Assembly: GCA_964550175.1 (NCBI GenBank)
Contig: CAZJXP010000001.1
Coordinates: 322,774-386,773, forward strand
Reading direction: 5' to 3'
From: an uncultured Methanosarcinales archaeon
Lineage (GTDB): Archaea; Nanobdellota; Nanobdellia; Woesearchaeales; ARS49
DNA: 64,000 nt
The notes beneath the pieces were generated by a model. The model made no database searches. It saw only the letters and a program-made list of their open reading frames with translations, and was not told where the DNA came from. The stretch's first letter is position 1; each line of letters begins with the position of its first letter. This document shows, in pieces, positions 10,337 to 49,680 of this stretch. The position numbers and the translations under genes were made by a program.

Positions 10337-10467
10337 TGGACCCGGACAGATTTGAACTGTCGACCGGTGGTGTGCCTAGGTTAGCCTACCTGTGCAGACG
10401 TGAGTCTGCGTTGTGATGAGCAGCGCCATATAAGACCACTGCTCTAGCCGGACTGAGCTACGGGTCC
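10337..10467 (-). tRNA. tRNA-Ile-like (anticodon TAT) with a 56-nt intron at canonical position 37/38
   Basis: Reverse complement gives acceptor GGACCCG/CGGGTCC, D-arm GCTCAGTCCGGCTAGAGC, anticodon stem GTGGT...ACCAC interrupted by an insert after CTTATA, T-arm GACAGTTCAAATCTGTC. Confidence 0.7.
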
Positions 10468-14700: not shown

Positions 14701-16171
<1,471 letters not shown>

Positions 16172-16292
16172 TTTCTTTTTTTCAATAAAATGAAAAACTG
16201 AATAATCATGTTGATATTGACACCGAGTAACATCGGTCATGGGAAAATTTATTTTTCCATGAGTTTGGTTGTTCGATTTTTTTCATACTCCG

Positions 16293-16364
16293 GGGCTCGT
16301 AGCTCAACGGTAGAGCGCTCCCTTTGCAAGGGAGAGGCTCCGGGTTCAAATCCCGGCGAGTCCA
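16293..16364 (+). tRNA. tRNA-Ala (anticodon TGC) in the 16S-23S spacer
   Basis: GGGCTCGTAGCTCAACGGTAGAGC...CTTTGCAAG...GGTTCAAATCCCGGCGAGTCCA with the G3:U70 identity pair. Confidence 0.9.
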
Positions 16365-16500
16365 TGTTTTGATTTGGAAAACGAATCACATTCGAATCCA
16401 GAATCGACACATGGACGAGACGGTGCAGGAGAACGCGCAAGCGTTCGACTCGCACCGGCGAGTCCGGAATCACAAGAAAAAACGTACTGCGACGATACGA

Positions 16501-16560
16501 CAAAATCTGCAGGGGAAAAGCAAAGCTGGGGAACCAGAAACTTTTTACCGGCACGTTTGG
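16501..16560. repeat. Palindromic element fragments inside the 16S-23S spacer
   Basis: CAAAATCTGCAGGGGAAAAGCAAAG followed by CTTTTTACCGGCACGTTTGG, about 140 nt downstream of tRNA-Ala. Confidence 0.6.
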
Positions 16561-16829
16561 AAGTTCGTTCGTCAGAAACGTAGTCACAAAGTTCACAGGA
16601 AATCATCAAGCTCATTGGTTCATAACGATGGGAAACGCTCGGCGGCTGTATTGCGTCGATCGATTGGTTAAGGAAATGAGTATGACAAATTTAATGGGTG
16701 ACCGTTGTTCACAACGGTCACGCGGAACAACAGGTTCCGTGATGTCTTCACTCTCATTTTGATGCGACCGTGCATGAGGCCTATATTGCATAAGATAGGG
16801 AAATCGACTTGAAAGAAAGTCAAATTAAC

Positions 16830-19800
16830 TTATATGGTGGAGGACTTGGTTCTCGACGCCGATGAAGGACGTGGCAAGCTGCGATAAGCTTCGGCGACCC
16901 GCACGCAGGGGTTGACCCGGAGATCTCCGAATAGGACTTCCTTTTAAGACCGCAAGGTCGGGGAACGGGGGGAATTGAAACGTCTTAGTACCCCCAGGAA
17001 AAGAAACCAATAGGGATACGGTGAGTAAGAGCGACTGAAAACCGCATACGACAAACCGAATCTTGCATTGAAAGATGCAAGGCATGTGGTGTGATAAGGA
17101 CTTTCATTTAGGCTACGCTCGATACGACAAAGTCGCCTGGAACGGCGCGCCAGAGAGGGTGATAGCCCCGTCGTCAGTGTTGAGAGAGCTGAGAAAGTAT
17201 CCTGAGTACTGTCCCTCGGAAATGGGGCAGGAAGATGGGAGGCATCTACTTCCAATCGTAAACACGTCGAGAGTCCGATAGCGTACAAGTACCGTGAGGG
17301 AAAGTTGAAAAGAACCCGTGACAGGGAGTTCAAAGAGCCTGAAACCATATAAGGATAGTCCTCTAATGCTTCAAGGAGTGTTAGAGTCCGTTGCGAATAA
17401 TGTGCCAGGGAGTGCCGGGGATGTGGCGAGGGTAAGCAGATCATCTGCGGACCCGTAGCGAAAGCGACACGCACGCAGGTAACAAGGTGCGCGGTATGAA
17501 AGTGCCGGAAGTCACATCATGGCAACCCGAAACCACTCGATCTAATCCTGAGCAAGATGAAGCGGGGGTAAAACCCCGTGGAGGTCTGAAGAGGTTCTGG
17601 ATGCATCCGTTCTTCTGACTTGGGATTAGGGGTGAAAAGCCAATCGAGAGTGGTGATAGCTGGTTCCTTCCGAAATTGGCCATAGTCAAGCCTCAAGCGA
17701 GATGGCGTTCGCTGTAGAGTCACAGATTGGGGGCTTAGGCTTCGAAAGAGGTCGGCCCTTTGTCTAACTCCGAATACGAGCGCGTCGTAGACCTTGGGAG
17801 TCGGGGCGTCGGCGTAAGGTTGATGTCCAAGAGGGGAACAACCCAGACATACATTAAGGTCCCTAAGTACCAATTAAGTGTGAAAGGCGAAAGGTTGTTC
17901 ATTGCCACAGACAGCGAGGAGGTAGGCTTAGAAGCAGCCACCCTTTAAAAAGTGCGTAACAGCTCACTCGTCAAGGCAATGAGTACCTACAATGGACGGG
18001 GCTAAATTGGTCACCGATATGTATGGCATCTCAAAAGGATGCGGTAGGAAGGCGTTCGGTGCGCGTAGAACGTGGCTTGAAAGGGCCACGGGAGCGCTTC
18101 GAAATGAGAATCCTGGCGTGAGTAGGATCATAGTGCTGTGAGAATCAGCATCGCTGAAAGGGCAAGGGTTTCTAGACACTGTCGATCAGTCTAGAGTTAG
18201 TCGGTCTTAACTGCGACCCCCACTGGGTCGTGTGAGGAAAAGGCAACAGGTTAATATTCCTGTACCATGTGTGTATGTGCGGCAACGCAAGCGTCATTAC
18301 CGACGCTTCGGGGTCAGTCGACACGAACTGTCGTTCGTGCTAAAGAAGATACAACCGAGGAGTATCGTCATGATGAGAATCGGTTGAACACTCTGAATGG
18401 TTCCGCTTTGCGGAATTCGGCCTATCCCTGGAGCCCGTGAAAAGGGAAAGACGAAAAATCACATATGTCCGTACCCAGAACCAGCACTGGTGCCCCTAGG
18501 TGAGAAGCCTCAAGTGTGAAGGAGACAACCCGGGCGAGGGAACTCGGCCAATTGGTCCCGTGCCTTCGGTAGAAGGGATCCCTGCGGCCGTGTGCATATG
18601 CATGGCGGCGGCAGGGCGCAGAGACCAGGGGTTCCCGACTGTTTAACAAAAACACAACTTCGTGCGAAGCTGAAAAGCTGTGTATACGAGGTGACGTCTG
18701 CCCAGTGCAGGTATCCGAATACCCTTTTCAAGGGGTTAAAGGACCTGTAAACGGCGGAAGTAACTATAACTTTCTTAAGGTGGCATTTACGACTGCCTTA
18801 GTGGGGTGTGAGACCCCTTCGATTGATTCACGCGCGCCGTGAACGACGAAAAAATCTGGCTATATGCTGGAACATCTGTTGCTGTTTTCGAATTTTAAAA
18901 CGAAAACAGCGTCAACGCAAGTTGATATCCGGTTGCATTGGTAACGGTGCAAACGCAGACAATCAGCAGGAAAGGCCGAGGCGACTTTTCGGAGTGTAAT
19001 AACTCCGAAGCGAAGCTTCGGAATCCTCAGAGACTGCATGCCAAGACAGCATTTTATGGAGAGCTCATCACTCACCGACATCAGCAATGATGGAAATGTT
19101 GAAGATACAGTCCGAGCTTAACAGCGATGTTAAGAACGTGACAGAAATGATCATGTCGTCAAGCAATTGACGTAACAAAAATGAGCGAAATGCCTTGTCA
19201 TTTGATTGGTGACGTGCATGAAGGGCGCAACGAGGTCCCCACTGTCCCCGCCCGGAATCCTCTGAAACCCCCTTCTGGTGCAAAGGCCAGAGAAGTCCAG
19301 TAGGAAGTGAAGACCCCGTGAAACTTTACTGTAGTCTGTCGCTGTGACGTGGAGATCATTGCATAGGGTATGCAGGAGCCGTTATGCGGAAACTTTCGGG
19401 TTTCCGATAGGCACCGATGTAACACTGCACTCTGATTTCCGCGCCGCTCACCCGATTGGGGACACCGATTGACGGACAGTTCGGCTGGGGTGGCACGCCG
19501 ATGAAAACATATCATCGGCGCCCAAAGGTTGGCTCAGACGGGTCAGAAATCCGTCGTAGCGTGCAAGGGCATAAGCCAGCCTGATTGGAATCCGATCAAG
19601 AACGATTCCAAACGCGAAAGCGTGGCCTAGCGAACCTCACTGCGCCTCTTGATGAGGCCGTGGGATGACCGAAAAGTTACTCCGGGGATAACAGAGTTGT
19701 CGCGCCTGAGAGTTCACATCGACGGCGCGGCTTGCTACATCGACGTCGGCTCTTCCTCTCCTAGGTGTGCAGTAGCATCTAAGGGTACGGGAGTTCACCG

Positions 19801-20105
19801 GTTAAAAGGGATCGTTAGCTGGGTTCACAACGCTGTGAGGCAGTTGGTATACGATCCACTGGACTTGCATAAACTTCTGAGGGGAAGGAAGACATAGTAC
19901 GAGAGGAACTGTCTTTCGTGGCCTCTAGTCTACCGGTTATCTGACAAGGTATTATGCCGGGCAGCCACGCCATATGGGATAAACACTGAAAGCATCTAAG
20001 TGTGAAACCCACCTCGAAAAGAGAAGAAAGGACGCTCATAGAAGATGAGTTCGATGGAAACGGGGTGTACGTGTTTAGGTAACGAGACACTCAGCCTGCG
20101 TTCCC
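16830..20105 (+). rRNA. rrl: 23S ribosomal RNA, interrupted by a ~402-nt intron
   Basis: GATGAAGGACGTGGCAAGCTGCGATAAGC near the 5' end; conserved GTAACTATAAC, CCCCACTGTCCC and GACCCCGTGAAACTTTACTG blocks; GAAAGCATCTAAG near the 3' end. End coordinates approximate (+/-20 nt). Confidence 0.9.
18782..19183 (+). other. Intron within 23S rRNA, between CTTAAGGT and AGCGAAAT (domain IV)
   Basis: The universally contiguous CTTAAGGT|AGCGAAATTCCTTGTC is split by ~402 nt with no 23S similarity. No LAGLIDADG-like ORF inside (only 63-75 aa junk ORFs). Confidence 0.75.
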
Positions 20106-20338
20106 CAAAAGTCCGTTATTACTTTATTTTATGTTTTGTAGGATGATCATTCAGGCAACTTTATGATCAATGCGCCTTCGGCGCTCTCATGCACGGTCGT
20201 TTCTTTTTTTTATTCTAGTTTTATTTCATTTTCAATGGATTCAGCGTGAGCTGGATTCTGAAAAATCATTTTTGAATGGAGCTAGCGAGAGCCATATTAT
20301 GACTGAACAGTTAATGAAAAAGCAATAAATAGAGTTAA

Positions 20339-21130
20339 TTAATTACTAGGAATAATTATTGTTCCAGAAATATCTCCTTTTTTGATTTCTTCAGAACTTA
20401 TAAGCATCACACGTTTATTTGTTTCAGTTAAGAAACTTTGACATTTATTAATAAGCTCGGTTGTTTTTGCTAACAAATCAGCATTTTGAGATTGAACTAC
20501 ATTCAAATCAAGATATTGCAATTCTGCTAATGTTATTCGACTATCATGTCTATCTTTATTCATGAACAAAGAAACCACTTCGTGCGTATGTCCAAAATCA
20601 TCATATTCTACATGTTTAAATTTAAACAAGGATGGTTTTGTGTTTATCATCCCCATGATTTTAAATTTTGCAAAGTTAAATATTTGTTTAGCATTTTCTT
20701 TTAGCAACGGGTCTTCCGATTTAATATGTTTAATGGCTCTAAACCAACCCCCCTCATACTGACAAACTGGGTCAATTTGAGTTATTACTGTATTGGGAGT
20801 TAGAGTTAATTCATCTGCTTTCAAAAATAAGCAACATAAGGAAGAGCAGCAATGAACTGGCACGTATACTTGAAAGGAGGATAGATTTTCTCTCAATATG
20901 TACGCCATAATAATTGCTGTTTTAAAATCGCCACCCTCACCATGAAGTATGACCGTTAAATTTTTACTAATGCTTGACTGCATAAAATCCATAAGCCATA
21001 TTTCATCATTTTCTTGGATTTCCTTATGATGAGCATAAATTAAAAAAATAAATTCGCGACCAAGGATTAACTTTATTTCTGCCTTAACTGAATAAATTTC
21101 TTTATTCAATAAGTCTAATTTATCTTGCAT
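20339..21130 (-). CDS. ClpP/S49-fold (crotonase-like peptidase fold) protein in the AT-rich island
   Basis: Segment LHGEGGDFKTAIIMAYIL...VYVPVHCCSSLCCLFLKAD...TPNTVITQIDPV parallels ClpP INSPGG...MAASMG...PNS.IMIHQP. Cys-rich where ClpP has the catalytic Ser region. AT-rich codon usage. Confidence 0.4.
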   Translation of the reverse strand: MQDKLDLLNKEIYSVKAEIKLILGREFIFLIYAHHKEIQENDEIWLMDFMQSSISKNLTVILHGEGGDFKTAIIMAYILRENLSSFQVYVPVHCCSSLCCLFLKADELTLTPNTVITQIDPVCQYEGGWFRAIKHIKSEDPLLKENAKQIFNFAKFKIMGMINTKPSLFKFKHVEYDDFGHTHEVVSLFMNKDRHDSRITLAELQYLDLNVVQSQNADLLAKTTELINKCQSFLTETNKRVMLISSEEIKKGDISGTIIIPSN

Positions 21131-21285
21131 ATTAACCTAAACGTGTCACTACATATATATTTAATGCTGCATTACAAATGATATCTAAATAACATACAAT
21201 TAATATACAGGAAGCTTTATAAATCAATTAAACCGTATAAAGTCATAATAACAGACGTACCTATCGGCAGCTGTGGAGGTGCTAT

Positions 21286-21498
21286 ATGGGCAAACAAATA
21301 AATATTCGTCTTTCGGATAAAGCAGTGAAAGAATTAGAGGACTTAAGAACTCGATTAAATTTAAGTTCGATTTCTGATGTGATTCGTGGTAGCATAGCTC
21401 TTCAAAAATTCATTGAAGATGAAAAAAGTAAGAATAAAGAAATTGTTCTAAAAGATAAACGAACTAACAAAGAACAAGTTATTGTAACCCTTAGGTAA
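21286..21498 (+). CDS. Small ribbon-helix-helix-like DNA-binding protein (70 aa)
   Basis: N-terminal beta-strand/helix pattern INIRLSDKAVKELEDLRTRL typical of RHH (CopG/Arc). Confidence 0.4.
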   Translation: MGKQINIRLSDKAVKELEDLRTRLNLSSISDVIRGSIALQKFIEDEKSKNKEIVLKDKRTNKEQVIVTLR

Positions 21499-21503
21499 AC
21501 CTA

Positions 21504-21767
21504 ATGCCAAAAGAAGAGTTTATTGAAATTACGGAAATTACTGACGGAAAAAAAACGCAGCACAAGTATCCAAATTTTGAACCAGAATTAAGTGTGAAAC
21601 CTCAAACAACAAAATGGTTTTTTTACACATTTAATTGGATATCACTATTGTTCTGTTTAACTTTTATTATTTTGATATTTTTGGAAAAACCGTTGCCAGA
21701 ATACTTCATTGGATTTATAGGTTCCATAATCGGATATTTCATTGCAAAAAGACCATATGAACTATAA
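21504..21767 (+). CDS. Small 2-TM membrane protein (87 aa)
   Basis: Two hydrophobic helices; 5-nt gap after the RHH gene suggests an operon. Confidence 0.4.
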   Translation: MPKEEFIEITEITDGKKTQHKYPNFEPELSVKPQTTKWFFYTFNWISLLFCLTFIILIFLEKPLPEYFIGFIGSIIGYFIAKRPYEL

Positions 21768-21785
21768 TTTACGTACGAGTTATCT

Positions 21786-22313
21786 ATGCAATTCAAGAAA
21801 AAGGGAATCATTCATGTTTCCATTCAAGATATCATGCTTGAAGACGGAACTACTATTGGCGTATTTGAAGGAAATCGTGGCGCGAATCCCGATCACGATA
21901 TTCTCATTAAATATCAAGAAAAAGCAAAGCGGTTACGCACGCCAAAACACGTTCATTGGGTTATTGACTTGCTAATTAAAAAACAGCATAACCCCGAACT
22001 AACGATTAAGTTCATGACTTATTTACGAAATATGTACGATCGTGTTGAAAAGTTCACCAGTAAAGAAGATAGAGCAAAATGTATTTTGAAAGAAACGACA
22101 AAAGTAAAATTAGCGCCATTTAAGGAGCTCGATAAGTATGGTGAGTATAAAGTAGAATTCGTTGGTCATCTTATTGAACTCATGATTAAGATGGAAAAGA
22201 ACACCCCGCCAGACAAACCTGCTCGCGTGTTCAGAGAATTAATTGATGCTATGATTCAAGAAAAAGACATATTTTCAATCGTGAGCAGAGCAACTCAAAT
22301 CGGCGGCCGTTAA
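21786..22313 (+). CDS. Hypothetical protein (175 aa), convergent and tail-overlapping with the Dam methyltransferase
   Basis: AT-rich ORF; stop overlaps the MTase stop region. Candidate partner of the MTase, which is speculation. Confidence 0.4.
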   Translation: MQFKKKGIIHVSIQDIMLEDGTTIGVFEGNRGANPDHDILIKYQEKAKRLRTPKHVHWVIDLLIKKQHNPELTIKFMTYLRNMYDRVEKFTSKEDRAKCILKETTKVKLAPFKELDKYGEYKVEFVGHLIELMIKMEKNTPPDKPARVFRELIDAMIQEKDIFSIVSRATQIGGR

Positions 22314-23197
22314 TAATTTGTCACAACAACTTCATTAATCAGTCCGCGACCGTCACTTCTGCAATTAATCATGCGTTTTGCCTGAACCGTATGAATATTG
22401 TATTTTGAGTAGAGTTCTCGAATAAACGTCGTGTCGCTATTGCTTAACATACAGAGAACGCCCTTTTTATCTAGCTTCTTGAAGACGTCAGCGAGTGCGA
22501 GCTGTTCCTTGTCAAGGAAGTCTCCTTTTGCATATTTTGTGAAGCTGGGTTTTCTGTCAAGCGGATAGTACGGCGGATCGAAATAGACGAAATCTCCTTT
22601 CTGACATTTATCAAGAACAACTTCAAAACTGCCCGTTGAGGTCTTAAATTGCTTCAATATCTTGTTTAATTCCTGAATATTGTCTTTTTGAATTATGTTT
22701 GGATTTTTGTACTTGCCACAGGGCACGTTAAATTGTCCTTTGCTATTGACACGGTGCAAACCGTTAAAACATGTTCTATTGAGATAAACAAAACGTGCGG
22801 CACGTTCTTCCTTTGATAACGTCTTCACATCAAGCGCACGTACTTTGTAAAAATGAGCTGCTGAATGCTTTTTCTTATGTTCTGTCAACAATTTTGTTAA
22901 ACGTGTAGGATTGTCACGAACAACTTCATATGTGTCAATAAGCTCAGAATTAACATCCGAGATGAACAGTTTCTTTTCCGGAAATTGTTTCGCTAGATGG
23001 AACGCGACAATTGCACTTCCTGCGAACGGCTCAAAGTAGTTGTTGAACGATTCGGGAAAGAGAGGAATAAACTGAGCAAGAAGCTGCCGTTTGCCACCTG
23101 CCCATTTTACAATGGTTGGCGCAGTGATAACTTCTTTAACGATCGCAGTTTGCAACGGAACACCCTCTTTAATGAAGGAAGATATTGCGAGCTGCAT
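22310..23197 (-). CDS. DNA adenine methyltransferase (Dam / D12 class N6-adenine MTase)
   Basis: Motif I FEPFAGSA and motif IV DPPY; overall Dam-like length and order. Confidence 0.85.
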   Translation of the reverse strand: MQLAISSFIKEGVPLQTAIVKEVITAPTIVKWAGGKRQLLAQFIPLFPESFNNYFEPFAGSAIVAFHLAKQFPEKKLFISDVNSELIDTYEVVRDNPTRLTKLLTEHKKKHSAAHFYKVRALDVKTLSKEERAARFVYLNRTCFNGLHRVNSKGQFNVPCGKYKNPNIIQKDNIQELNKILKQFKTSTGSFEVVLDKCQKGDFVYFDPPYYPLDRKPSFTKYAKGDFLDKEQLALADVFKKLDKKGVLCMLSNSDTTFIRELYSKYNIHTVQAKRMINCRSDGRGLINEVVVTNY

Positions 23198-23285
23198 ATT
23201 TTAAGCTTTGCATAAGTAGTTAAATTGGCTACGAGCCCATGTCCAGTGACAAACATTTTTAACTAACCTATAGATTATATAATCA

Positions 23286-23954
23286 ATGAGAAAAACACAA
23301 GAAAAGTTCCTCTTCTCCCCCTCCTCGCTGAACCTCCTCAAGGACTGCCCCCGTTGTTTCTGGTTGCAGTTCAACAAGGCCATCAAGCGTCCGGCAGGCA
23401 TCTTTCCATCATTACCATCAGGCATGGATCATGTTCTGAAGACTCATTTCGACCGGTACATCGGGAAAGGACTCCCATCTGAGTTGAAGAACCTTGAAGG
23501 GGTCGAACTGTTCAGCGACAAAGCCCAATTGGACCTCTGGCGGTCGAACTTCAAGGGAATACGCCTAGAAACGCCTGCGTACACGCTCCGTGGTGCGGTG
23601 GACAACCTGCTCGTGAAAGGAAAGAAACTCATTGTGCTTGATTACAAGACGCGCGGTTTCCCGCTGAAGGAAGACACGCATCACCATGCAGAAGATCAGA
23701 TGCACCTCTACAACTTTCTGCTGCGCAAGAACGGCCACGCGACCGAAGACTACTCCTATCTCCTATTCTACCATCCGAAGGAAGTGCTGGAAAACGGCGA
23801 TGTCGTCTTCAATAAGGATTTAATCAAAATTCCTGTGGACATCAAGCGTGCCAAAACCATCTTGAAAACAGCCGTGAAAACGTTAAAGGCAAAGTGTCCG
23901 AAGAAGTCTTGCGACTGGTGTCAATCACACACAAGTCGACCAAAACCAAAATAG
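23286..23954 (+). CDS. PD-(D/E)XK nuclease, Cas4-like (RecB-family) with Cys cluster
   Basis: N-terminal CPRCFW, central IVLDYKT (D-x-K) and C-terminal CPKKSCDWC, a Cas4-like Fe-S cysteine arrangement. Confidence 0.6.
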   Translation: MRKTQEKFLFSPSSLNLLKDCPRCFWLQFNKAIKRPAGIFPSLPSGMDHVLKTHFDRYIGKGLPSELKNLEGVELFSDKAQLDLWRSNFKGIRLETPAYTLRGAVDNLLVKGKKLIVLDYKTRGFPLKEDTHHHAEDQMHLYNFLLRKNGHATEDYSYLLFYHPKEVLENGDVVFNKDLIKIPVDIKRAKTILKTAVKTLKAKCPKKSCDWCQSHTSRPKPK

Positions 23955-24443
23955 CCCTGCTATTACCGAAAAGACTGCTACTGACAAAGCAGCTATCGTT
24001 GAAATTTTGATGTCTTTTGAAACGACAAACGTGATGCCCAGTACCGAAGCGCCGAATGCCCCTGCTAGAAGAAGAATACTTAAAATCGCACCGACAATTC
24101 CCATGGATGCGAATCCACCATACTGATTAGCTAATTTACAAAGTGCATCATCCTTTATGCAACGACCTTCAGAGCACGCATTTCCATTTTGAGCACAATC
24201 TTCATTTCGCACGCACGATTCTCCCTGTGCACTTTTCTGACAATGACCTGATCGACAGCTGCCAACGGCACAATCATACGTTGAAACGCATTCTTCAAAT
24301 TCATTACTTTTTGCACAGAAACCGCCTTCACAGCGACCTGAAAGACAATCAGTCGGAATTTCGCATGATGAATGAGCGCCGACTCGACCATCACAGCCGG
24401 CGAGCATCAGCAGCATAATCGGCAAAATCCACCAATATTTTTC
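23925..24443 (-). CDS. Cys-rich surface lipoprotein with C-terminal TM anchor
   Basis: Lipobox LLMLAGC; repeated C..DC..G.C..G.C modules (about 22 Cys); C-terminal hydrophobic helices. Confidence 0.55.
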   Translation of the reverse strand, partial: EKYWWILPIMLLMLAGCDGRVGAHSSCEIPTDCLSGRCEGGFCAKSNEFEECVSTYDCAVGSCRSGHCQKSAQGESCVRNEDCAQNGNACSEGRCIKDDALCKLANQYGGFASMGIVGAILSILLLAGAFGASVLGITFVVSKDIKISTIAALSVAVFSVIAGLFWFWSTCV

Positions 24444-44123: not shown

Positions 44124-44405
44124 ATGGTACTAAACGTGAAGATTCTCGACGAGAAGAAGAACAAGATATCCTTCGAAATCGAAGGCGACTCGCACACACT
44201 TTCTGCTGCGCTGACCAAGGAACTCTGGAACGACAAGAGCGTCAAGGCAGCCGGCTACAACGTGGACCACCCCCTTCTGGGCAAACCCACGTTCACGGTC
44301 GAAACCGACGGCGAAGACCCCAAGAAGGTCGTTTCCGCAGCCGCGAAACGACTGGCCAAAGCCGCTGAAAAGCTCAGCGAACAGGCATCCAAGGAACTCA
44401 AGTAA
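44124..44405 (+). CDS. rpoL: DNA-directed RNA polymerase subunit L (Rpb11 homolog)
   Basis: 93 aa; FEIEGDSHTLSAAL...YNVDHPLL pattern. Confidence 0.8.
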   Translation: MVLNVKILDEKKNKISFEIEGDSHTLSAALTKELWNDKSVKAAGYNVDHPLLGKPTFTVETDGEDPKKVVSAAAKRLAKAAEKLSEQASKELK

Positions 44406-44411
44406 ACGCCC

Positions 44412-44915
44412 GTGGCATTCGTCCGCGTCAAGACCATCAAGGGCAACCGCTACGCTTACCTGGTTGAAAACACCTGGCAGACGCGCGGCTCACGCCAAGT
44501 GGTCAAAGGCTATCTCGGCAAGGTGTTGAAACCTGATGCTCAGCCGTTCGGCACGCCGCCCGACATTTCTACGCTATCCTATGCTGACGCGGTCACGACC
44601 TTGGCTTCTTGGACGTTGGACAACCACGGATTCTCGCACGCGGACGGGAAACACACGAAAGACACGGTGACGGTCCACGTGCACGATAAGCAAATCCTGC
44701 ACAAATCCAAATCCGCCGTTCTTGAACTGAACGAAGGCTATCTCTGCAATCATACTTTGACGAATTTACTGAACTTCGTCGGCGAAGGCTCCCGCGAAGA
44801 AGAAGTCGGCAAACGCCTGGCAAACACGCTCTTGGAAGCCGGCATTTCTGTCCCGCAAGACACGTTCGTCGCGCTGTTTCACAAAATCTATAAACCGCTT
44901 CCGGAGCAAAACTAA
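44412..44915 (+). CDS. Hypothetical protein (167 aa)
   Basis: ORF between rpoL and uppS in the same orientation. Confidence 0.4.
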   Translation: MAFVRVKTIKGNRYAYLVENTWQTRGSRQVVKGYLGKVLKPDAQPFGTPPDISTLSYADAVTTLASWTLDNHGFSHADGKHTKDTVTVHVHDKQILHKSKSAVLELNEGYLCNHTLTNLLNFVGEGSREEEVGKRLANTLLEAGISVPQDTFVALFHKIYKPLPEQN

Positions 44916-44916
44916 G

Positions 44917-45636
44917 ATGCAACCGACCACCAGCAACGTGCCGAAACACATCGGCATCATCATGGACGGCAACCGACGCTTCGCGAAAAAGCTCATGCTC
45001 AAGCCATGGAAAGGCCACGAATGGGGCGCGAAAAAAGTCAAGGACGTGCTCCAATGGTGCAACGAGCTCGGCATCAAAGAAATCACACTCTACGCGTTCT
45101 CGATTGAGAACTTCAGCCGACCGAAAGAGGAATTTGACTACCTCATGACGCTGTTCTTGAAGGAATTCACCGAACTTCATTCGAAAAAGAACCTCGCGCA
45201 GCTCAAGAAGGACGGCGTCAAAATCAACTTCCTGGGCCGCATCGAAATGTTCCCGAAGAACGTGCAAGATGCGATGAACCAAATTATGAAATCAACCCAA
45301 AGCAACGGTCCTAACTTGGTGAATTTCGCGATGGCCTACGGCGGACGCGCGGAAATCATCGACGCGACCAAGAAAGTCGCAGCCTTAGTTAAGGCAGGCA
45401 AGCTCGACATCGACAAGATTAACGAATCCATGTTCCAAAAACAGCTGTACACTGAATCCGAGCCTGATTTGATTATCCGAACCTCAGGCGAACAGCGCAC
45501 GTCAGGATTCTTATTGTGGCAAGGGTCGTACGCAGAACTGTACTTCTCTGACAAGAACTGGCCTGATTTCGAGAAGAAAGACCTCGAGAAAGCGCTTGAA
45601 ACGTACCAGAACCGCGAGCGGAGGTTCGGGAAATGA
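44917..45636 (+). CDS. uppS: cis-prenyltransferase (undecaprenyl/dehydrodolichyl diphosphate synthase)
   Basis: HIGIIMDGNRRFA N-terminal motif and overall UPPS family pattern. Confidence 0.9.
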   Translation: MQPTTSNVPKHIGIIMDGNRRFAKKLMLKPWKGHEWGAKKVKDVLQWCNELGIKEITLYAFSIENFSRPKEEFDYLMTLFLKEFTELHSKKNLAQLKKDGVKINFLGRIEMFPKNVQDAMNQIMKSTQSNGPNLVNFAMAYGGRAEIIDATKKVAALVKAGKLDIDKINESMFQKQLYTESEPDLIIRTSGEQRTSGFLLWQGSYAELYFSDKNWPDFEKKDLEKALETYQNRERRFGK

Positions 45637-45938
45637 CGAACACACAACCGAGCGAATGGCGACAACTCCACAGCAAGCAAGCAAGCCGTTCGATGTATTT
45701 CGGCGGGGCGATGAGCGGCATCGGAGTCGGCTTCCTCGCAAGCGCCGGTCTGAAACTCAAGGAACAAAAAGAACTAGAAGCAAACTCTTCAACGCTCGAA
45801 ACGACCATCAAGGACTGCCAAACGCTCGCTATCGGATACGGCTTCACCGGAGCTTCTTTCCTCATCGCCGGCCTGCTTAGCTACTACATCGGACGACACT
45901 TTTTCACACTCGACAAAAAGGGGTATTTCGGCAAATGA
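45633..45938 (+). CDS. Small Gly-rich 2-TM hairpin protein 1 (101 aa)
   Basis: Overlaps the uppS stop by 4 nt; two Gly/Ala-rich hydrophobic segments. Confidence 0.5.
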   Translation: MTNTQPSEWRQLHSKQASRSMYFGGAMSGIGVGFLASAGLKLKEQKELEANSSTLETTIKDCQTLAIGYGFTGASFLIAGLLSYYIGRHFFTLDKKGYFGK

Positions 45939-46198
45939 CCATCAATGAAAAAGTAGACGGAGTGCAAACCGCGCGACCGTTCCGAATCGCAGCAGACTCA
46001 GCGGCATTAGCCACCATCAGCGGATCACTTTCCGCATTCTGTTATTCCCGCATAGACAGCGAAACGCGCCCGGTCCGAAAAGTCGGCTATCATATTGAAG
46101 GAGCCGGCTTCGGCATCTTCGCGGCATTACTCGGCGCGCAAGCCGTAAGCCTCTTATACCGAGGGGTTCGGCAGGCCTATCGTAAGGTGAATGAATGA
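45935..46198 (+). CDS. Small Gly-rich 2-TM hairpin protein 2 (87 aa)
   Basis: 4-nt overlap with the previous gene; same architecture. Confidence 0.5.
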   Translation: MTINEKVDGVQTARPFRIAADSAALATISGSLSAFCYSRIDSETRPVRKVGYHIEGAGFGIFAALLGAQAVSLLYRGVRQAYRKVNE

Positions 46199-47022
46199 CA
46201 AAATTCGATGGCATAGACTCAATCGACGACGCGTTCGCGAACGACAACAGCGACCCGAACGAAACGAAGACCTGGCAGATGCCGGCGGAAGACCCCGTCA
46301 TAGAAAACGCGAAGCTCACGTACGAGAACGAAATCCTCAAGAAAACCAACGACTCGCTCAACAATCAATACACAATCCTCGAGCAAGTCGCAAACGAAAT
46401 TGTCACAGAACGCGACGCCGCGCGCAGCGAACTGGTCAAAACCTACGCCATCCCTCAATCAAAGAACTGGTTCGCGCTCGGAACAATAGCGGGCGCGTTC
46501 GCGCTCGGACTGTACGCACTCAGAACGATGGACCCCATCGCGGTCTACGCCTCGATGACGCTCGCCGGACTCGGAGTCGGGATTGGAATCACAAAGCCGG
46601 GAACGGACAAGAAACCCACGCCTAAATTCATTGACCCGCACACTCATGCACGAGACCAATCCAACGATGTATCGCGCGACCTTGAACGATCAACATACGC
46701 GGTATGGAATGAACGACAAAAGGAAAATCATGATAATGTGCGCCTAGAAAAAATAGCCATGCCGAACATAATTCAGGATCACCACGCAGCCTACCCTTCA
46801 CCTATGGAAGTCTACGGAAAAAAACTTGATCACCACTGCAGCTGGTGCCACAAGCCGGATTGCACTGATAAGGACCACAAACGCGGATACATTAGTTTGA
46901 ACGAAGAAGCAACGCCCGCCCGCCGGGCTCGCCGCCCGAAGCAAACCTCTGAAGAAAAGAAAGGGCTTCGAGAGCACCCGGACGAATGCATGTGCAAGAT
47001 GTGCGCCTGGATGAAATCCTAA
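46195..47022 (+). CDS. Coiled-coil, 2-TM hairpin and C-terminal Cys/His-rich (zinc-finger-like) protein 3 (275 aa)
   Basis: 4-nt overlap with the previous gene; HHCSWCHKPDC...ECMCKMCAW C-terminus. Confidence 0.5.
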   Translation: MTKFDGIDSIDDAFANDNSDPNETKTWQMPAEDPVIENAKLTYENEILKKTNDSLNNQYTILEQVANEIVTERDAARSELVKTYAIPQSKNWFALGTIAGAFALGLYALRTMDPIAVYASMTLAGLGVGIGITKPGTDKKPTPKFIDPHTHARDQSNDVSRDLERSTYAVWNERQKENHDNVRLEKIAMPNIIQDHHAAYPSPMEVYGKKLDHHCSWCHKPDCTDKDHKRGYISLNEEATPARRARRPKQTSEEKKGLREHPDECMCKMCAWMKS

Positions 47023-47297
47023 TGACCAACCAACACGACATCGAAGAGCGAATCGCGCGGTACGGTGGCTATGCTTCCGCGTTCGTAGCAGGCGGACTTG
47101 CTTGTCGAAGCGTCGCCGTGTACAATTACGCAATGGAATTGCCTCCGTCTAAAGAGGCGGGAAACGCCGCGCTTACCAGCTACCTTGAGCTCACAGGAGC
47201 ATTGTTCCTCGTTGGCCTGAGCTATGCGCTGTTCCGTTCTGCGAAAGAATCACGCAAATTCTCACTTGAACAGGACGCGTCGCAGAAAATCCGATGA
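47022..47297 (+). CDS. Small Gly-rich 2-TM hairpin protein 4 (91 aa)
   Basis: Start MTNQHD overlapping the stop of protein 3; same architecture. Confidence 0.45.
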   Translation: MTNQHDIEERIARYGGYASAFVAGGLACRSVAVYNYAMELPPSKEAGNAALTSYLELTGALFLVGLSYALFRSAKESRKFSLEQDASQKIR

Positions 47298-47668
47298 ACC
47301 AAAGCTTTCTTCCCGAATGGGACCCTTCTCCGTACCCTTCGTTTGAAGATTTAGTGCAAGAAAGTAAAGTCATCAACAAAGAATGGGACGCAGCGGAAAA
47401 GATTGCCGAAACCCGTCTGAACTCACTACTTTTACCCGGCATCGGCTACGTCAGCTCGTTAGCGCTTGCGGTCAACTACGGCATCCCCTCGGGAAATCCT
47501 GCCTTGATGACGCTCAGCATTGCCGCAAGCATCTTCTCTACGGGAGTTTTACAACATTATGCCCGCTCATTCCTGCGCGCGGACGCCGAAAGAAAAATCA
47601 AAAAAGCGCAATGGCATAATTCAATCGATGAGATAGACTACTGCTTCGAAAGAATAAATAAAGAATAA
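47294..47668 (+). CDS. Small Gly-rich 2-TM hairpin protein 5 (124 aa)
   Basis: 4-nt overlap with the previous gene; same architecture. Confidence 0.5.
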   Translation: MNQSFLPEWDPSPYPSFEDLVQESKVINKEWDAAEKIAETRLNSLLLPGIGYVSSLALAVNYGIPSGNPALMTLSIAASIFSTGVLQHYARSFLRADAERKIKKAQWHNSIDEIDYCFERINKE

Positions 47669-47677
47669 AAAAGAGTC

Positions 47678-48244
47678 TTAGCCGAGCCACCGACGTTCTA
47701 AACGGCGAACCATCTTCTCGTAGTGCACTAAAGCAGCCTCATTGCGGCCGCCTTCAACTAGTCTTAAAGACTGCCGAATATCCCGATCATACAGTTTCTC
47801 GAACACGCTCCGGGGATTGCGCGCCTTACCATAGATTGCGGCAATCACCCGAGGCGCGGTCTTGTAGTACGCCCTGACGAGTCCGCTTCCACCAGGGACT
47901 TCTTGGAGGATATAGGAATCACGGAACGCTCGCAGTGTTTCCAACTCAAGACAGTTATCCTGACGTCCCTTAGCGCCAACACAAGCAGTTGTTAAGAAGC
48001 ACCAACTACTTGAGCCGCTATCGCTCGAACTCTCCGGAATTTCGCCGTTCTTGTATGCGTGATAGCCTTCTTCTCTTGCCTGCTCTTCAGGACTATCCTT
48101 GCACGGAACAATTGTGTTCGCAGCACCATTGAGTAAATCACTAATGAAGTGACCAAATCCATCACCCGGCTTTTCGTTTTTTGCCTCTTCAACTCCATCA
48201 TTGAACGCCTTTCGCTGGTTGTAATCATCTGTTAGCCGTCCCAT
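47678..48244 (-). CDS. Hypothetical protein (about 188 aa)
   Basis: Start taken at MGRLTDDY; the upstream part of the track's ORF is Cys/Gly junk overlapping the trmB leader. Confidence 0.4.
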   Translation of the reverse strand: MGRLTDDYNQRKAFNDGVEEAKNEKPGDGFGHFISDLLNGAANTIVPCKDSPEEQAREEGYHAYKNGEIPESSSDSGSSSWCFLTTACVGAKGRQDNCLELETLRAFRDSYILQEVPGGSGLVRAYYKTAPRVIAAIYGKARNPRSVFEKLYDRDIRQSLRLVEGGRNEAALVHYEKMVRRLERRWLG

Positions 48245-48354: not shown

Positions 48355-49095
48355 ATGCACCACGGACTCGCAGCCTACGGACTGACTGAAAAAGAGTCAA
48401 AAGTCTATCTCGCGCTCCTAGAGCTAGGCACGACAACCGCAACGAGAATCTCCCAAGTCACGCACCTGAACCGCACGACCCTCTACGATATTCTCGGCGG
48501 ACTCACGGAAAAAGGAATCGTGAGCCGAGTCAAGCAAGGGCAAGTCACTCATTTCGCGGCGGCGTCACCAAAACGATTATTGGACCAGATGGAAGAACGC
48601 GCACGCACATTCCAAGAATCACTCACGGAATTAAGCACGCGCCAGAACAGCCTCGGGCCGAAGCCGAGTATTGAACTCTATGAAGGCAGCCAGGGCGTGA
48701 ACGCCATTTATAAGCACCTGTTGAGCCTCGGAAAACCCATCTATGGCTATGGTTCGTTTGAGATTATCGAGCATGCGGCCAGACATCACACGCGTGACTA
48801 CCGCAAGCAGCGCGTCGCGAAAAAGATCCACACGGAAGTAATCACTGACTCAACTGTAACGTACCTTCCCTCATGGAAAGACGCGAACTACCGCAAATAC
48901 ACCAAAATCTATCTTGATCCATCCATGAAAACTATGCCCGTGTGGACATACATCGTCGGAACCACGGTTGCAGTCATTTCCTGCAGCAAAAGCCTACTCT
49001 TCGGATTTCTCATGAATGACCTAGGCCTGGCGAAGAAGGAACTGGCCGTGTTCGAACGGCTGAAAGCGGACGCGACGCTGTTCCATAAGATTTAA
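48355..49095 (+). CDS. TrmB-family HTH transcriptional regulator
   Basis: N-terminal YGLTEKESKVYLALLELGTTTATRISQVTHLNRTTLYDILGGLTEKGIV wHTH. Confidence 0.7.
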   Translation: MHHGLAAYGLTEKESKVYLALLELGTTTATRISQVTHLNRTTLYDILGGLTEKGIVSRVKQGQVTHFAAASPKRLLDQMEERARTFQESLTELSTRQNSLGPKPSIELYEGSQGVNAIYKHLLSLGKPIYGYGSFEIIEHAARHHTRDYRKQRVAKKIHTEVITDSTVTYLPSWKDANYRKYTKIYLDPSMKTMPVWTYIVGTTVAVISCSKSLLFGFLMNDLGLAKKELAVFERLKADATLFHKI

Positions 49096-49131: not shown

Positions 49132-49680
49132 ATGGAAATACTCGGCGTTATGCACGATGATACTCATCCTGATTTTAAAACGACAATCAACTATCTCGAT
49201 GCGCACTTGACGAAATCATCCATTGTGGCGCTTGAAGGCGCGGATTTGACTGTGTCCGACCTGCTCCACTCGCCAAGAAAATATCCTAATGATCCGTTTT
49301 TTGCATTTTTCAGCAAAATCGCCGTACATACCCATAATTACGGCGCACGCGCCATCGTCGTGGACGACCCGGTTGCGAGACAGGAAGAAAGCGAGCTTGA
49401 ACAATTTCTTTGTCAATATGAGGGTTTGACTGCTGAACAGTGGAATGCCAAATACACCGCTGCCGTCAAACGAAGCATTGCAATGTATCAGCAAGCGAAA
49501 CAACATCGCGCAACCCATTTAATTATCGGCGGAATGCACGCCTACGATATCAAACGAATCTTTTCCGTACCGGTCACGCATTTTACCCCGAGGGAATTCG
49601 ACTCCCGGGACCAAATTGAAACCCGCAGCAAGGCAATCAGCAAATTCCAGCGCGAATATGCATCAGGCAGTAAGGTTTAA
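49132..49680 (+). CDS. Hypothetical protein (182 aa)
   Basis: ORF with good coding character. Confidence 0.45.
   Translation: MEILGVMHDDTHPDFKTTINYLDAHLTKSSIVALEGADLTVSDLLHSPRKYPNDPFFAFFSKIAVHTHNYGARAIVVDDPVARQEESELEQFLCQYEGLTAEQWNAKYTAAVKRSIAMYQQAKQHRATHLIIGGMHAYDIKRIFSVPVTHFTPREFDSRDQIETRSKAISKFQREYASGSKV

Follow-up and report, generated by a model that had tools for sequence, protein, structure and literature searches.

Immediately downstream of uppS in an archaeal genome, five consecutive + strand ORFs of 101, 87, 275, 91, and 124 aa (A101, B87, C275, D91, and E124) span positions 45633–47668 of the window, which denotes the whole 64-kb stretch of DNA that was analysed. The locus raises the question of whether these ORFs are genes, whether they constitute one family of membrane hairpin proteins, and whether they serve the lipid pathway of the enzyme whose gene they follow. 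Our analysis favours the view that they are real, fast-evolving, lineage-restricted orphan genes for small predicted membrane proteins, accessory in nature and located in a hypervariable slot; we give this reading a probability of about 0.55.

Gene context of the five ORFs

The host is a small-genome DPANN archaeon of the Woesearchaeota/Nanoarchaeia type, represented by a 969-kb contig. The window contains an archaeal rRNA operon, and the genes around the cluster are housekeeping genes. The closest uppS relatives (54–66% identical) are labelled as Woesearchaeota/Nanoarchaeia or as unclassified or mislabelled archaeal MAGs, with Woesearchaeota or Nanoarchaeia being the label of many labelled ones.

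Upstream of the five ORFs lies a tightly packed gene string composed of rpoL (44124–44405, +; labelled RNA_pol_L_2), the conserved gene p167 of unknown function (44412–44915, +), and uppS (44917–45636, +), which encodes a 239-aa cis-prenyltransferase (Pfam Prenyltransf, E=1e-79). The spacing is 6 nt between rpoL and p167 and 1 nt between p167 and uppS, and rpoL and p167 are syntenic with uppS in about 19–29 Woesearchaeota loci. The TGA stop codon of uppS overlaps the start of A101. Read directly from the DNA, the uppS/A, A/B, B/C, and D/E junctions are ATGA and the C/D junction is TAATG. The string rpoL-p167-uppS-A-B-C-D-E is probably co-transcribed, with the five ORFs at its 3' end. Overlaps of 1–4 nt are also found between unrelated neighbours in the same genome (L1/L10 and S24e/Spt4/Rpo7). 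The rest of the slot between uppS and rpl1 is filled by a convergent gene for a 188-aa CFI-box-CTERM protein (47678–48244, −), a TrmB-family regulator (48355–49095, +), and the gene p182 of unknown function (49132–49680, +), and the slot ends at rpl1 (from 49744).

Coding evidence

For each ORF, a codon-usage log-odds score trained on the conserved genes of the window exceeds zero in the annotated frame alone (+0.15 to +0.34 bits/codon), with the remaining five frames scoring −0.35 to −1.07. A101 reaches +0.32 and E124 +0.19, and B87 and D91 are lowest at +0.15 each. The C-terminal 140 aa of C275 score near zero (+0.05), yet the annotated frame is still the best there. In addition, a GGAGGT Shine-Dalgarno motif precedes the ATG of A101 by 7 nt, and AGGTGA precedes that of C275 by 4 nt, whereas a comparable site stands before 4.4% of the window's ATGs overall. 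All five ORFs are predicted by both the NCBI and the Logan gene callers. The Logan contigs carrying the same proteins are 100% identical in DNA and come from the same organism, so that they provide no population variation.

That the ORFs are spurious open frames could be argued from their low-complexity helices and from the lack of homologues beyond one contig for four of the five. We regard this as scarcely credible, and it is already largely refuted by the frame-specific codon bias, the Shine-Dalgarno motifs, the exact start/stop overlaps at the junctions, and the existence of orthologues of C and D, with a dN/dS of 0.19 for C (see below). The start/stop overlaps together with the codon score agree with an earlier, sequence-only reading of this DNA that described translationally coupled real genes, and non-coding statistics were not seen. 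The lengths and coordinates given in that reading are all correct, and the peptide segments it quoted all occur in the translations.

Architecture of the five proteins

Each of the five proteins possesses two weakly to moderately hydrophobic helices rich in Gly, Ala, and Ser, and each is predicted to insert in the membrane as a helical hairpin. A101 (45633–45938, +) has predicted helices at about residues 22–40 and 64–86, connected by a 23-aa charged loop. Its AF2 model is a two-helix hairpin (H8–48 and H55–95, pLDDT 67), for which Foldseek returned only generic helical-hairpin matches (E>3) and no informative fold match. B87 (45935–46198, +) contains one clear hydrophobic helix at residues 55–75 (GAGFGIFAALLG) and a weak Ala/Ser-rich helix at 18–37. 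The glycine motifs GIGVG and GAGFG are found in A101 and B87, and the charged loops make the topology of these two proteins ambiguous. D91 (47022–47297, +) is a predicted hairpin with helices at about 15–37 and 50–71, followed by a basic C-terminal tail. Translation from an ATG further upstream (46986) would yield 103 aa instead; the start that gives 91 aa is supported by homology with D', its counterpart in a close relative. E124 (47294–47668, +) is composed of an acidic N-terminal region, a hairpin (43–63 and 69–89) whose loop is 5 aa long, and a C-terminal helix that is charged. In C, D, and E, both ends of the chain probably lie on the cytoplasmic side.

The putative transmembrane helices are only marginally hydrophobic: a rough estimate on the Hessa scale, summed over 19-residue segments, gives +1.8 to +6.5 kcal/mol, and helix 1 of B87 and of D91 is the weakest. 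The Gly/Ala-rich helix pair reported earlier for every protein is present, and is modelled as a hairpin in A101.

C275 (46195–47022, +) has a more elaborate organization. An acidic head (aa 1–33; 46195–46293, +) is followed by an Asn/Leu heptad zipper (aa 34–84; 46294–46446, +), a tight hairpin (aa 92–132; 46468–46590, +) containing the turn RTMDP and the segment GLGVGIG, and a lineage-specific Cys/His-rich tail (aa 136–275; 46600–47019, +). The zipper and the tail correspond to the N-terminal coiled coil and C-terminal Cys/His-rich region described previously. The AF2 model is of low confidence overall (pLDDT 49), with the helix 34–84 at about 80 and two further helices at 92–111 and 114–126. 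The second hairpin helix carries a GxGxGxG motif (G125-L-G-V-G-I-G131), and helix 1 shows GxxxG-type spacing only.

Homologues and a close relative

A full HMMER scan with C275 against 1.84 billion (1.84e9) representative proteins identified one homologue, P0009 (E=6e-38), hereafter C'. Another candidate, P0010 (825 aa), was rejected, being a repetitive, tail-fibre-like protein whose match comes from low-complexity stretches. C' lies on L086, a single 1.6-kb metagenome contig to which our comparison with a close relative is confined, in the gene order uppS-ATGA-C'-ATGA-D'-E'-L1. With ribosomal L1 86% identical between the two organisms, C is 62% identical, D 33%, and E can no longer be recognised; the contig lacks A and B, as well as the CFI-box-CTERM protein, the TrmB-family regulator, and p182. 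The D/D' match (E=3e-8) was obtained after repair of one frameshift in D', which may mean that D is dispensable or may be a sequencing error in the contig. E' (P0011) is a 101-aa hairpin protein that is the positional analogue of E124, with no detectable similarity to it.

C' is 138 aa long and lacks the Cys/His-rich tail. The RTMDP turn and its flanks are invariant between C275 and C', and the glycine motif is kept as GLGVG(I/L)G; this GxGxGxG is unique to the pair among about 5,500 ORFs of the window and 80 related loci. In the zipper, 12 of the 13 heptad a/d positions are identical, compared with 18 of 30 elsewhere. The dN/dS over 130 codons is 0.19. On the best reading of this sequence comparison, C is under purifying selection and is the only clearly constrained member of the five.

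Word-index searches of 5.8e9 proteins returned the query proteins and E' alone: A101 and B87 retrieved nothing but themselves, and E124 retrieved itself and E', the latter having been part of the query alignment. Near uppS in the 80 related loci, phmmer in default and --max modes gave no homologue below E=0.08, and no paralogue was found elsewhere in the window. Scans of metagenome contigs with C-family peptide patterns and with a back-translated RTMDPIAVY DNA pattern were empty; the collection evidently does not include the L086 sample. Searches of Pfam, NCBIfam, PHROGs, PADLOC, and PDB gave no match for any of the five proteins, in line with the earlier statement that they belong to no known family. 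Judged by these searches, the five genes are known from the window organism and one close relative only, a range of about a single genus; three of the five are known from one genome.

The five had also been described as paralogues, and this part of the description did not hold. All-against-all BLASTP, Smith-Waterman alignment with 300 shuffles, and hhalign, in which two-sequence profiles of C and D were compared with the others, detected nothing significant among the five; the significant pairs were the orthologous C/C' and D/D' only.

The variable uppS–rpl1 slot

The five genes are located between the conserved rpoL-p167-uppS block and rpl1. Across about 19 syntenic Woesearchaeota loci, the distance between uppS and L1 varies between 73 bp and 4.4 kb, and the gene content of the gap is unrelated: the slot is either empty or occupied by genes for other small proteins, secreted or membrane-bound, and in one locus (L071) rpl1 begins just 73 bp after uppS. 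Of 75 relatives, just 2 or 3 have a Gly-rich small membrane ORF beside uppS, and about 70 have nothing comparable. In locus L047 an ATGA junction couples uppS to a Gly-rich multi-TM ORF of 123 aa, and in L021 a Gly-rich 104-aa ORF lies 57 nt downstream of uppS.

These two loci, together with the start/stop overlap between uppS and the first hairpin gene in both the window and L086, could suggest that the five proteins are membrane partners of the cis-prenyltransferase, in which one or more hairpins would tether UppS or hand polyprenyl-diphosphate to the bilayer. The ATGA coupling kept in both genomes leaves some room for such a functional link, although the gene joined to uppS differs (A101 in the window, C' in L086). 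We consider the partnership improbable, since most relatives have no comparable gene, rpl1 can follow uppS almost directly, short overlaps equally join unrelated genes, and none of the five proteins has a Prenyltransf, DPM2/3, or OST-subunit Pfam match. Moreover, bacterial and archaeal UppS works as a homodimer and is not known to have a membrane subunit. The possible functional tie to polyprenyl or dolichol metabolism raised in the sequence-only reading is not supported, given the same variation in slot content and the same overlaps between unrelated genes, and a survey of the uppS linkage found that it is not kept beyond the one close relative.

Known partners of lipid-carrier enzymes offer a further comparison. 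NgBR/Nus1, DPM2, DPM3, and OST4/5 are small hairpin/TM proteins that anchor or stabilise such enzymes; NgBR/Nus1 is the partner of eukaryotic DHDDS, and DPM2/DPM3 are partners of Dol-P-Man synthase. The likeness of the present locus to these subunits is that its genes are coupled in translation to an adjoining cis-prenyltransferase gene, whereas the linkage is not kept beyond one close relative. With respect to NgBR/Nus1, there is no cis-PT-like match, A, B, D, and E are too short (87–124 aa), C275 is unrelated, and the RXG motif is absent from the C-termini of all five. None of the five has a Pfam match to DPM2, DPM3, OST4, or OST5 at E<=1. We find it highly doubtful that the hairpins assemble around the zipper-bearing C into a hetero-oligomeric complex that docks UppS or supplies the polyprenyl-phosphate carrier. 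Such a complex, if real, would be an independently evolved archaeal functional analogue of NgBR-DHDDS in the envelope of a host-dependent DPANN archaeon.

Comparison with other hairpin proteins

Class II holins and pinholins (e.g. S21 of phage 21) are proteins of about 70–120 aa with two helices. The proteins studied here resemble them by analogy in size and build: they too have two helices, of which the first is Gly/Ala/Ser-rich and weakly hydrophobic, their C-terminal tail is charged, and their topology is probably N-in/C-in. This format, the variability of the region, and the tightly overlapping small genes, which are common in viruses, would be compatible with a pore-forming, holin-like, or toxin cassette, or with the remnant of a virus or mobile element in a hotspot. 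Such an origin is quite improbable in view of what surrounds the genes and what the searches returned. The cluster comprises five different genes with native codon usage within a housekeeping operon, its neighbours are rpoL, uppS, TrmB, L1, and L10, and C occupies the same position in the relative. No endolysin or other lytic enzyme, viral setting, integrase, or tRNA target was found, and the repeats around the cluster are short and at chance level, with no flanking repeats or att-like sites. No holin family was matched in Pfam or PHROGs at E<=1, PADLOC gave no match, and IMG/VR viral contigs, GenBank phages, and plasmids contained no relatives.

Mic10, the MICOS core subunit, and ATP-synthase subunit c are small two-helix hairpins with GxGxGxG motifs, and C275 and C' have a tight hairpin with such a motif in helix 2; this is a 'works like' analogy only. 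The predicted hairpin of C275 combines the two TM segments and the GxGxGxG motif that characterise Mic10 (PF04418). However, MICOS_Mic10 was not matched in Pfam at E<=1, the host is a DPANN archaeon rather than a mitochondrial/eukaryotic or alphaproteobacterial one, and C differs from both Mic10 and subunit c in carrying an extra 90-aa cytoplasmic acidic/zipper domain. Subunit c (PF00137) is likewise not matched by any of the five (ATP-synt_C at E<=1; NCBIfam none). As for its helix-2 carboxylate, only D91 has a Glu (E56), which is not conserved in D', and no ATPase subunit gene occurs among the Pfam-scanned or Pfam-labelled genes across the window. VirB2/CedA1-type conjugative pilins are hairpin proteins whose genes adjoin those for a VirB4/CedB-type ATPase and a polytopic channel protein; such an ATPase was found neither among the Pfam-labelled genes between 38.7 and 57.3 kb nor in the window's remaining large ORFs.

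A lineage-restricted gene set

The absence of A, B, and the C275 tail from a close relative also bears on a different possibility, namely that at least some of the genes arose recently in evolution, possibly de novo, have at most a minor function, and persist in a permissive slot that ends a well-expressed operon. This would apply most readily to A101, B87, E124, and the C275 tail: A101, B87, and E124 are singletons, the codon scores of B87, D91, E124, and the C tail are the lowest, and D' is frameshifted. In addition, de novo candidates are reported to be short and rich in TM helices (PMC9258230). We judge this origin rather unlikely, considering that all frames are intact, the annotated frame clearly outscores the other five each time, the Shine-Dalgarno motif of A101 is perfect, and C is under purifying selection.

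In the favoured reading of real, accessory membrane proteins, C would be the constrained core of an assembly. Its conserved Asn/Leu zipper would form a parallel coiled-coil dimer or oligomer in the cytoplasm, and the GxGxGxG and small-xxx-small faces of its RTMDP hairpin would pack against the Gly/Ala-rich D and E and, in this genome, also against A and B. GxGxGxG motifs in hairpin proteins such as Mic10 and subunit c drive homo-oligomerisation (PMC4431669). Together they would make up a small hetero-oligomeric assembly in the membrane, whose role would be structural or that of a scaffold, either in the envelope or at the cell-host interface. On the favoured reading, the adjacency of uppS reflects genome compaction and operon position rather than a shared pathway. 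The locus would gain more weight only if a UppS link, membrane-remodelling, or pore activity were shown, and no finding points specifically in that direction.

If this reading is right, the cluster is another case of a known pattern, the hypervariable slots between housekeeping blocks in reduced DPANN genomes, and the slot proteins are plausible players in envelope or host contact, with possible recent gene birth. Hypothetical proteins specific to one archaeal lineage tend to be small and to contain many TM helices, and they have been suggested to function in cell-cell or cell-environment interaction or to reflect recent gene origination (Meheust et al. 2022, PMC9258230). The five proteins are likewise small, TM-rich, unannotatable, and confined to a narrow lineage, although the families described there are shared throughout a phylum-level lineage, in contrast to the single genus or genome seen here. 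The two relatives provide a compact comparative case, in which one slot contains a core gene, a frameshifted gene, a replaced gene, and two genes present in one organism and absent from the other.

Five coupled orphan genes follow uppS

The cis-prenyltransferase gene uppS is followed on the forward strand by five tightly linked, translationally coupled orphan genes (A-E) of 101, 87, 275, 91 and 124 aa, namely A101 (45633-45938), B87 (45935-46198), C275 (46195-47022), D91 (47022-47297) and E124 (47294-47668). The ORF listing and the raw sequence confirm the coordinates, lengths and overlaps described in the sequence-only reading, and all peptide segments quoted there are found in the translations. 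The junctions are ATGA for uppS/A, A/B, B/C and D/E, and TAATG for C/D. An upstream ATG at 46986 is another possible start of D91, giving 103 aa; D', its counterpart on a close relative's contig (L086), has a start that corresponds to the 91-aa form.

Coding status was assessed by log-odds scoring of codon usage, with the window's conserved genes as training set. The annotated frame is the sole positive frame in each of A-E (+0.15 to +0.34 bits/codon), the remaining five frames scoring from -0.35 to -1.07. The lowest coding score belongs to the C-terminal 140 aa of C275 (+0.05). The 16S 3' end in the window is ...GGATCACCTCCT; GGAGGT lies 7 nt upstream of the A101 ATG and AGGTGA 4 nt upstream of the C275 ATG, and a comparable Shine-Dalgarno-type site precedes just 4.4% of all window ATGs. 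Because the codon score is frame-specific and such sites are rare, A-E are real genes, and their being spurious ORFs is scarcely credible.

None of A-E matches Pfam, NCBIfam, PHROGs, PADLOC or PDB sequences above noise, in line with the initial failure to recognise a known family. Word-index searches of 5.8 billion proteins returned just the query proteins and the L086 counterpart of E124 (E', P0011), itself included in the query alignment. When C275 was run with HMMER against all 1.84 billion cluster representatives, a single true homologue emerged: the 138-aa protein P0009 (C'; E=6e-38), 64% identical to C275 residues 3-133. The other match to C275, P0010 (825 aa, tail-fibre-like), was rejected as a false hit to a repetitive protein. 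By these comparisons, A-E represent sequence families that are new and extremely narrow in distribution.

Predicted hairpins and the features of C275

Each of A-E contains two Gly/Ala/Ser-rich hydrophobic helices. The paired helices read earlier are thus present, and their insertion as two-TM hairpins is a prediction, since the hydrophobicity is only marginal (+1.8 to +6.5 kcal/mol per 19 residues in a rough Hessa-scale sum, weakest in the first helices of B87 and D91). The loops of C, D and E are short (5, 12 and 5 aa), nearly uncharged and flanked by K/R-rich segments, which fits a cytoplasmic location of the termini. The loops of A101 and B87 are longer and charged, with ambiguous topology. 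The AF2 model of A101 shows two long antiparallel helices (pLDDT 67).

The AF2 model of C275 contains a confident long helix (34-84), followed by helices 92-111 and 114-126; the remainder is of low confidence (mean pLDDT 49). The long helix is a heptad zipper, with Asn, Tyr, Ala or Arg at the a positions (38, 45, 52, 59, 66, 73) and Leu, Ile or Ala at the d positions (41, 48, 55, 62, 69, 76). The tail carries CxxCH...C and CxCxxC clusters, which may be zinc-binding sites. Both the coiled coil and the Cys/His tail proposed for the third ORF are thereby recovered. One copy of a short imperfect direct repeat, ATGTGCGCCT(A/G)GA... (46736-46767 and 46999-47030), lies inside this lineage-specific tail and the other at its end; the copies are in different reading frames, and their similarity (72% over 32 nt) is at about chance level.

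The five proteins had been proposed to form a paralogous family, and this claim is not supported: all-against-all BLASTP, Smith-Waterman alignment with shuffles and hhalign profile comparisons revealed no significant similarity among them. The best z was ~3.6, a score also attained by 2/300 shuffles; it was obtained for B87 with E124 as well as with C'. All hhalign probabilities stayed below 2%. A very ancient duplication, convergence or the low-complexity composition of helices rich in Gly and Ala may explain the common plan.

Constraint revealed by a close relative

C' is encoded on L086, a JGI metagenome contig of 1,655 bp with the order uppS 3' end, C', D', E', an 85-bp spacer and rpl1. 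The N-terminus of its L1 (the rpl1 product) is 86% identical to that of the window, versus at most 57% in GTDB relatives, so by this measure L086 is a much closer relative than the GTDB genomes. C' stops right past the hairpin and is without the Cys/His tail. C' and D' (L086 565-833) are again coupled through ATGA. One frameshift, located in the loop between the two helices, breaks the D' frame; it marks either a pseudogene or an error of sequencing or assembly in this low-coverage contig. Once repaired, D' has ~88 aa and is 33% identical to D91 (BLASTP, E=3e-8).

Comparison of C(1-135) with C' gives pN=0.25, pS=0.66 and dN/dS ~0.19, with dS near saturation. In the zipper helix, 12/13 a/d positions are identical versus 18/30 elsewhere (Fisher p=0.03, register chosen after inspection), and YALRTMDPIAVY around the hairpin turn is invariant. 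By these values C is under purifying selection, with the zipper and the turn as its constrained parts. D, in contrast, diverges and is possibly in decay.

E' (101 aa, GTG start) has the same helix/hairpin/charged-helix plan as E124, with no detectable similarity between them (E=0.89; z=0.66). A101 and B87 are unique, and both are missing from this one 1,655-bp contig, as are the CFI-box protein, TrmB and p182 that follow E124 in the window. That at least A, B, E and the C tail are young or de novo genes of little function is unlikely, yet deserves real weight.

A hypervariable slot downstream of uppS

The block n250(-)...rsmE-rpoL-p167-uppS...L1-L10 is found in ~19 of 80 uppS loci. Across these, as little as 73 bp (L071) or as much as 4.4 kb separates uppS from L1, and the contents are unrelated; among them are genes on either strand for lipoprotein-like and signal-anchored proteins, a membrane protein resembling transglutaminases, ORFs similar to polyprenyl synthases, and PIN/AbrB-like pairs. 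A phmmer search of A-E against all 4,901 ORFs of the 80 loci found no match. Given the variable gap and the lack of matches in these loci, A-E fill a hypervariable accessory slot. A similar theme follows uppS in just two of the 75 loci with enough downstream sequence: a 123-aa Gly-rich multi-TM ORF in L047 (7687-8058), overlapping the uppS stop by ATGA, and a 104-aa Gly-rich small membrane ORF in L021 (7768-8082), neither matching Pfam. Both loci are from distant Woesearchaeota relatives, and these ORFs are unrelated.

The ATGA coupling to uppS is kept in L086, where the partner is C' instead of an A101 homologue. Unrelated genes of the window's genome likewise overlap by 1-4 nt (L1/L10, S24e/Spt4/Rpo7). 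The suggested tie to polyprenyl or dolichol lipid metabolism through uppS finds no support in this variable slot, and gene position together with genome compaction offers the best explanation of the coupling. A role of A-E as a membrane tether of UppS is accordingly improbable, and a UppS-docking membrane complex very doubtful indeed.

Possible role and known systems

A-E would insert in the membrane as hairpins, and C would dimerise or oligomerise via its zipper. The hairpins would pack against one another through GxGxGxG and small-xxx-small faces, on the model of Mic10 and subunit c of ATP synthase, whose oligomerisation is driven by such motifs (PMC4431669). We speculate that in a symbiotic DPANN cell A-E act as structural or scaffold components of the envelope or of the membrane in contact with the host. 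Such a role would match what is generally found for hypothetical proteins confined to one archaeal lineage: they are small and rich in TM helices, and may act in interactions between cells or with the environment, or reflect recent gene origination (PMC9258230). Lineage-specific small membrane proteins in a DPANN variable slot are an already known phenomenon, and A-E provide no evidence here for a new mechanism.

No membership test assigned A-E to ATP-synthase subunit c, Mic10, holins, VirB2/CedA1 pilins, NgBR-type partners or DPM/OST small subunits; for Mic10, the glycine-motif hairpin alone was found. This generic hairpin is the only feature common to A-E and the known systems compared. A holin-like, toxin or mobile-element remnant has little probability: searches of viral, phage and plasmid collections found nothing, the genes have native codon usage, and neither an integrase nor an att site is present.

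Source organism and genomic neighbourhood

A-E are encoded on an NCBI contig of 969,452 bp. The window contains a complete archaeal rRNA operon (16S, tRNA-Ala, 23S; 14704-20128), with a group I intron in the 23S gene (18772-19134), whose locus is ~330 nt longer than the Rfam model. Among 185,579 GTDB species (one genome each), the best uppS relatives are 54-66% identical, many labelled Woesearchaeota or Nanoarchaeia and others unclassified or with other archaeal labels. By the rRNA operon and these identities and labels, the source is a DPANN archaeon, none of whose close relatives has been sequenced.

Upstream of A-E the gene order is rsmE, rpoL, p167 and uppS, with intergenic gaps of at most 6 nt from rpoL through E124. 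The protein p167 (44412-44915, 167 aa) has no Pfam family and is kept in ~19 Woesearchaeota loci at 36-48% identity, making it a clade-conserved protein in a transcription/translation neighbourhood. A convergent gene ends 9 nt past E124 (47678-48244, reverse strand) and encodes a 188-aa CFI-box-CTERM protein (NF041770, E=6e-12), with this domain mid-protein rather than C-terminal. It is followed by a TrmB regulator (48355-49095), p182 with no assigned family (49132-49680) and the 301-aa L1 (49744-50649). This L1 bears a Lys/Arg/Glu-rich C-terminal extension of ~85 aa, and its tblastn matches in relatives span just ~200-250 residues. The 64-kb surroundings are housekeeping in character (Kae1, LonB, FtsY, ScpA, CCA-adding enzyme, Rpo7, Spt4, L1, L10, L12), with no secretion or conjugation ATPase among the window genes examined.

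Directly 3' of the 23S gene, a low-GC island (20000-24000, GC 0.33-0.43 versus ~0.52 elsewhere) encodes an SDH-type ClpP-like protease-like protein (20339-21130, reverse), a D12-class N6-adenine DNA methyltransferase (22310-23197, reverse) and a PD-(D/E)XK nuclease (23286-23954, forward), and probably represents a restriction-modification-like island gained by horizontal transfer. An Rfam tRNA call spanning 131 nt (10337-10467, reverse), absent from the ARAGORN results, is probably an intron-containing archaeal tRNA.
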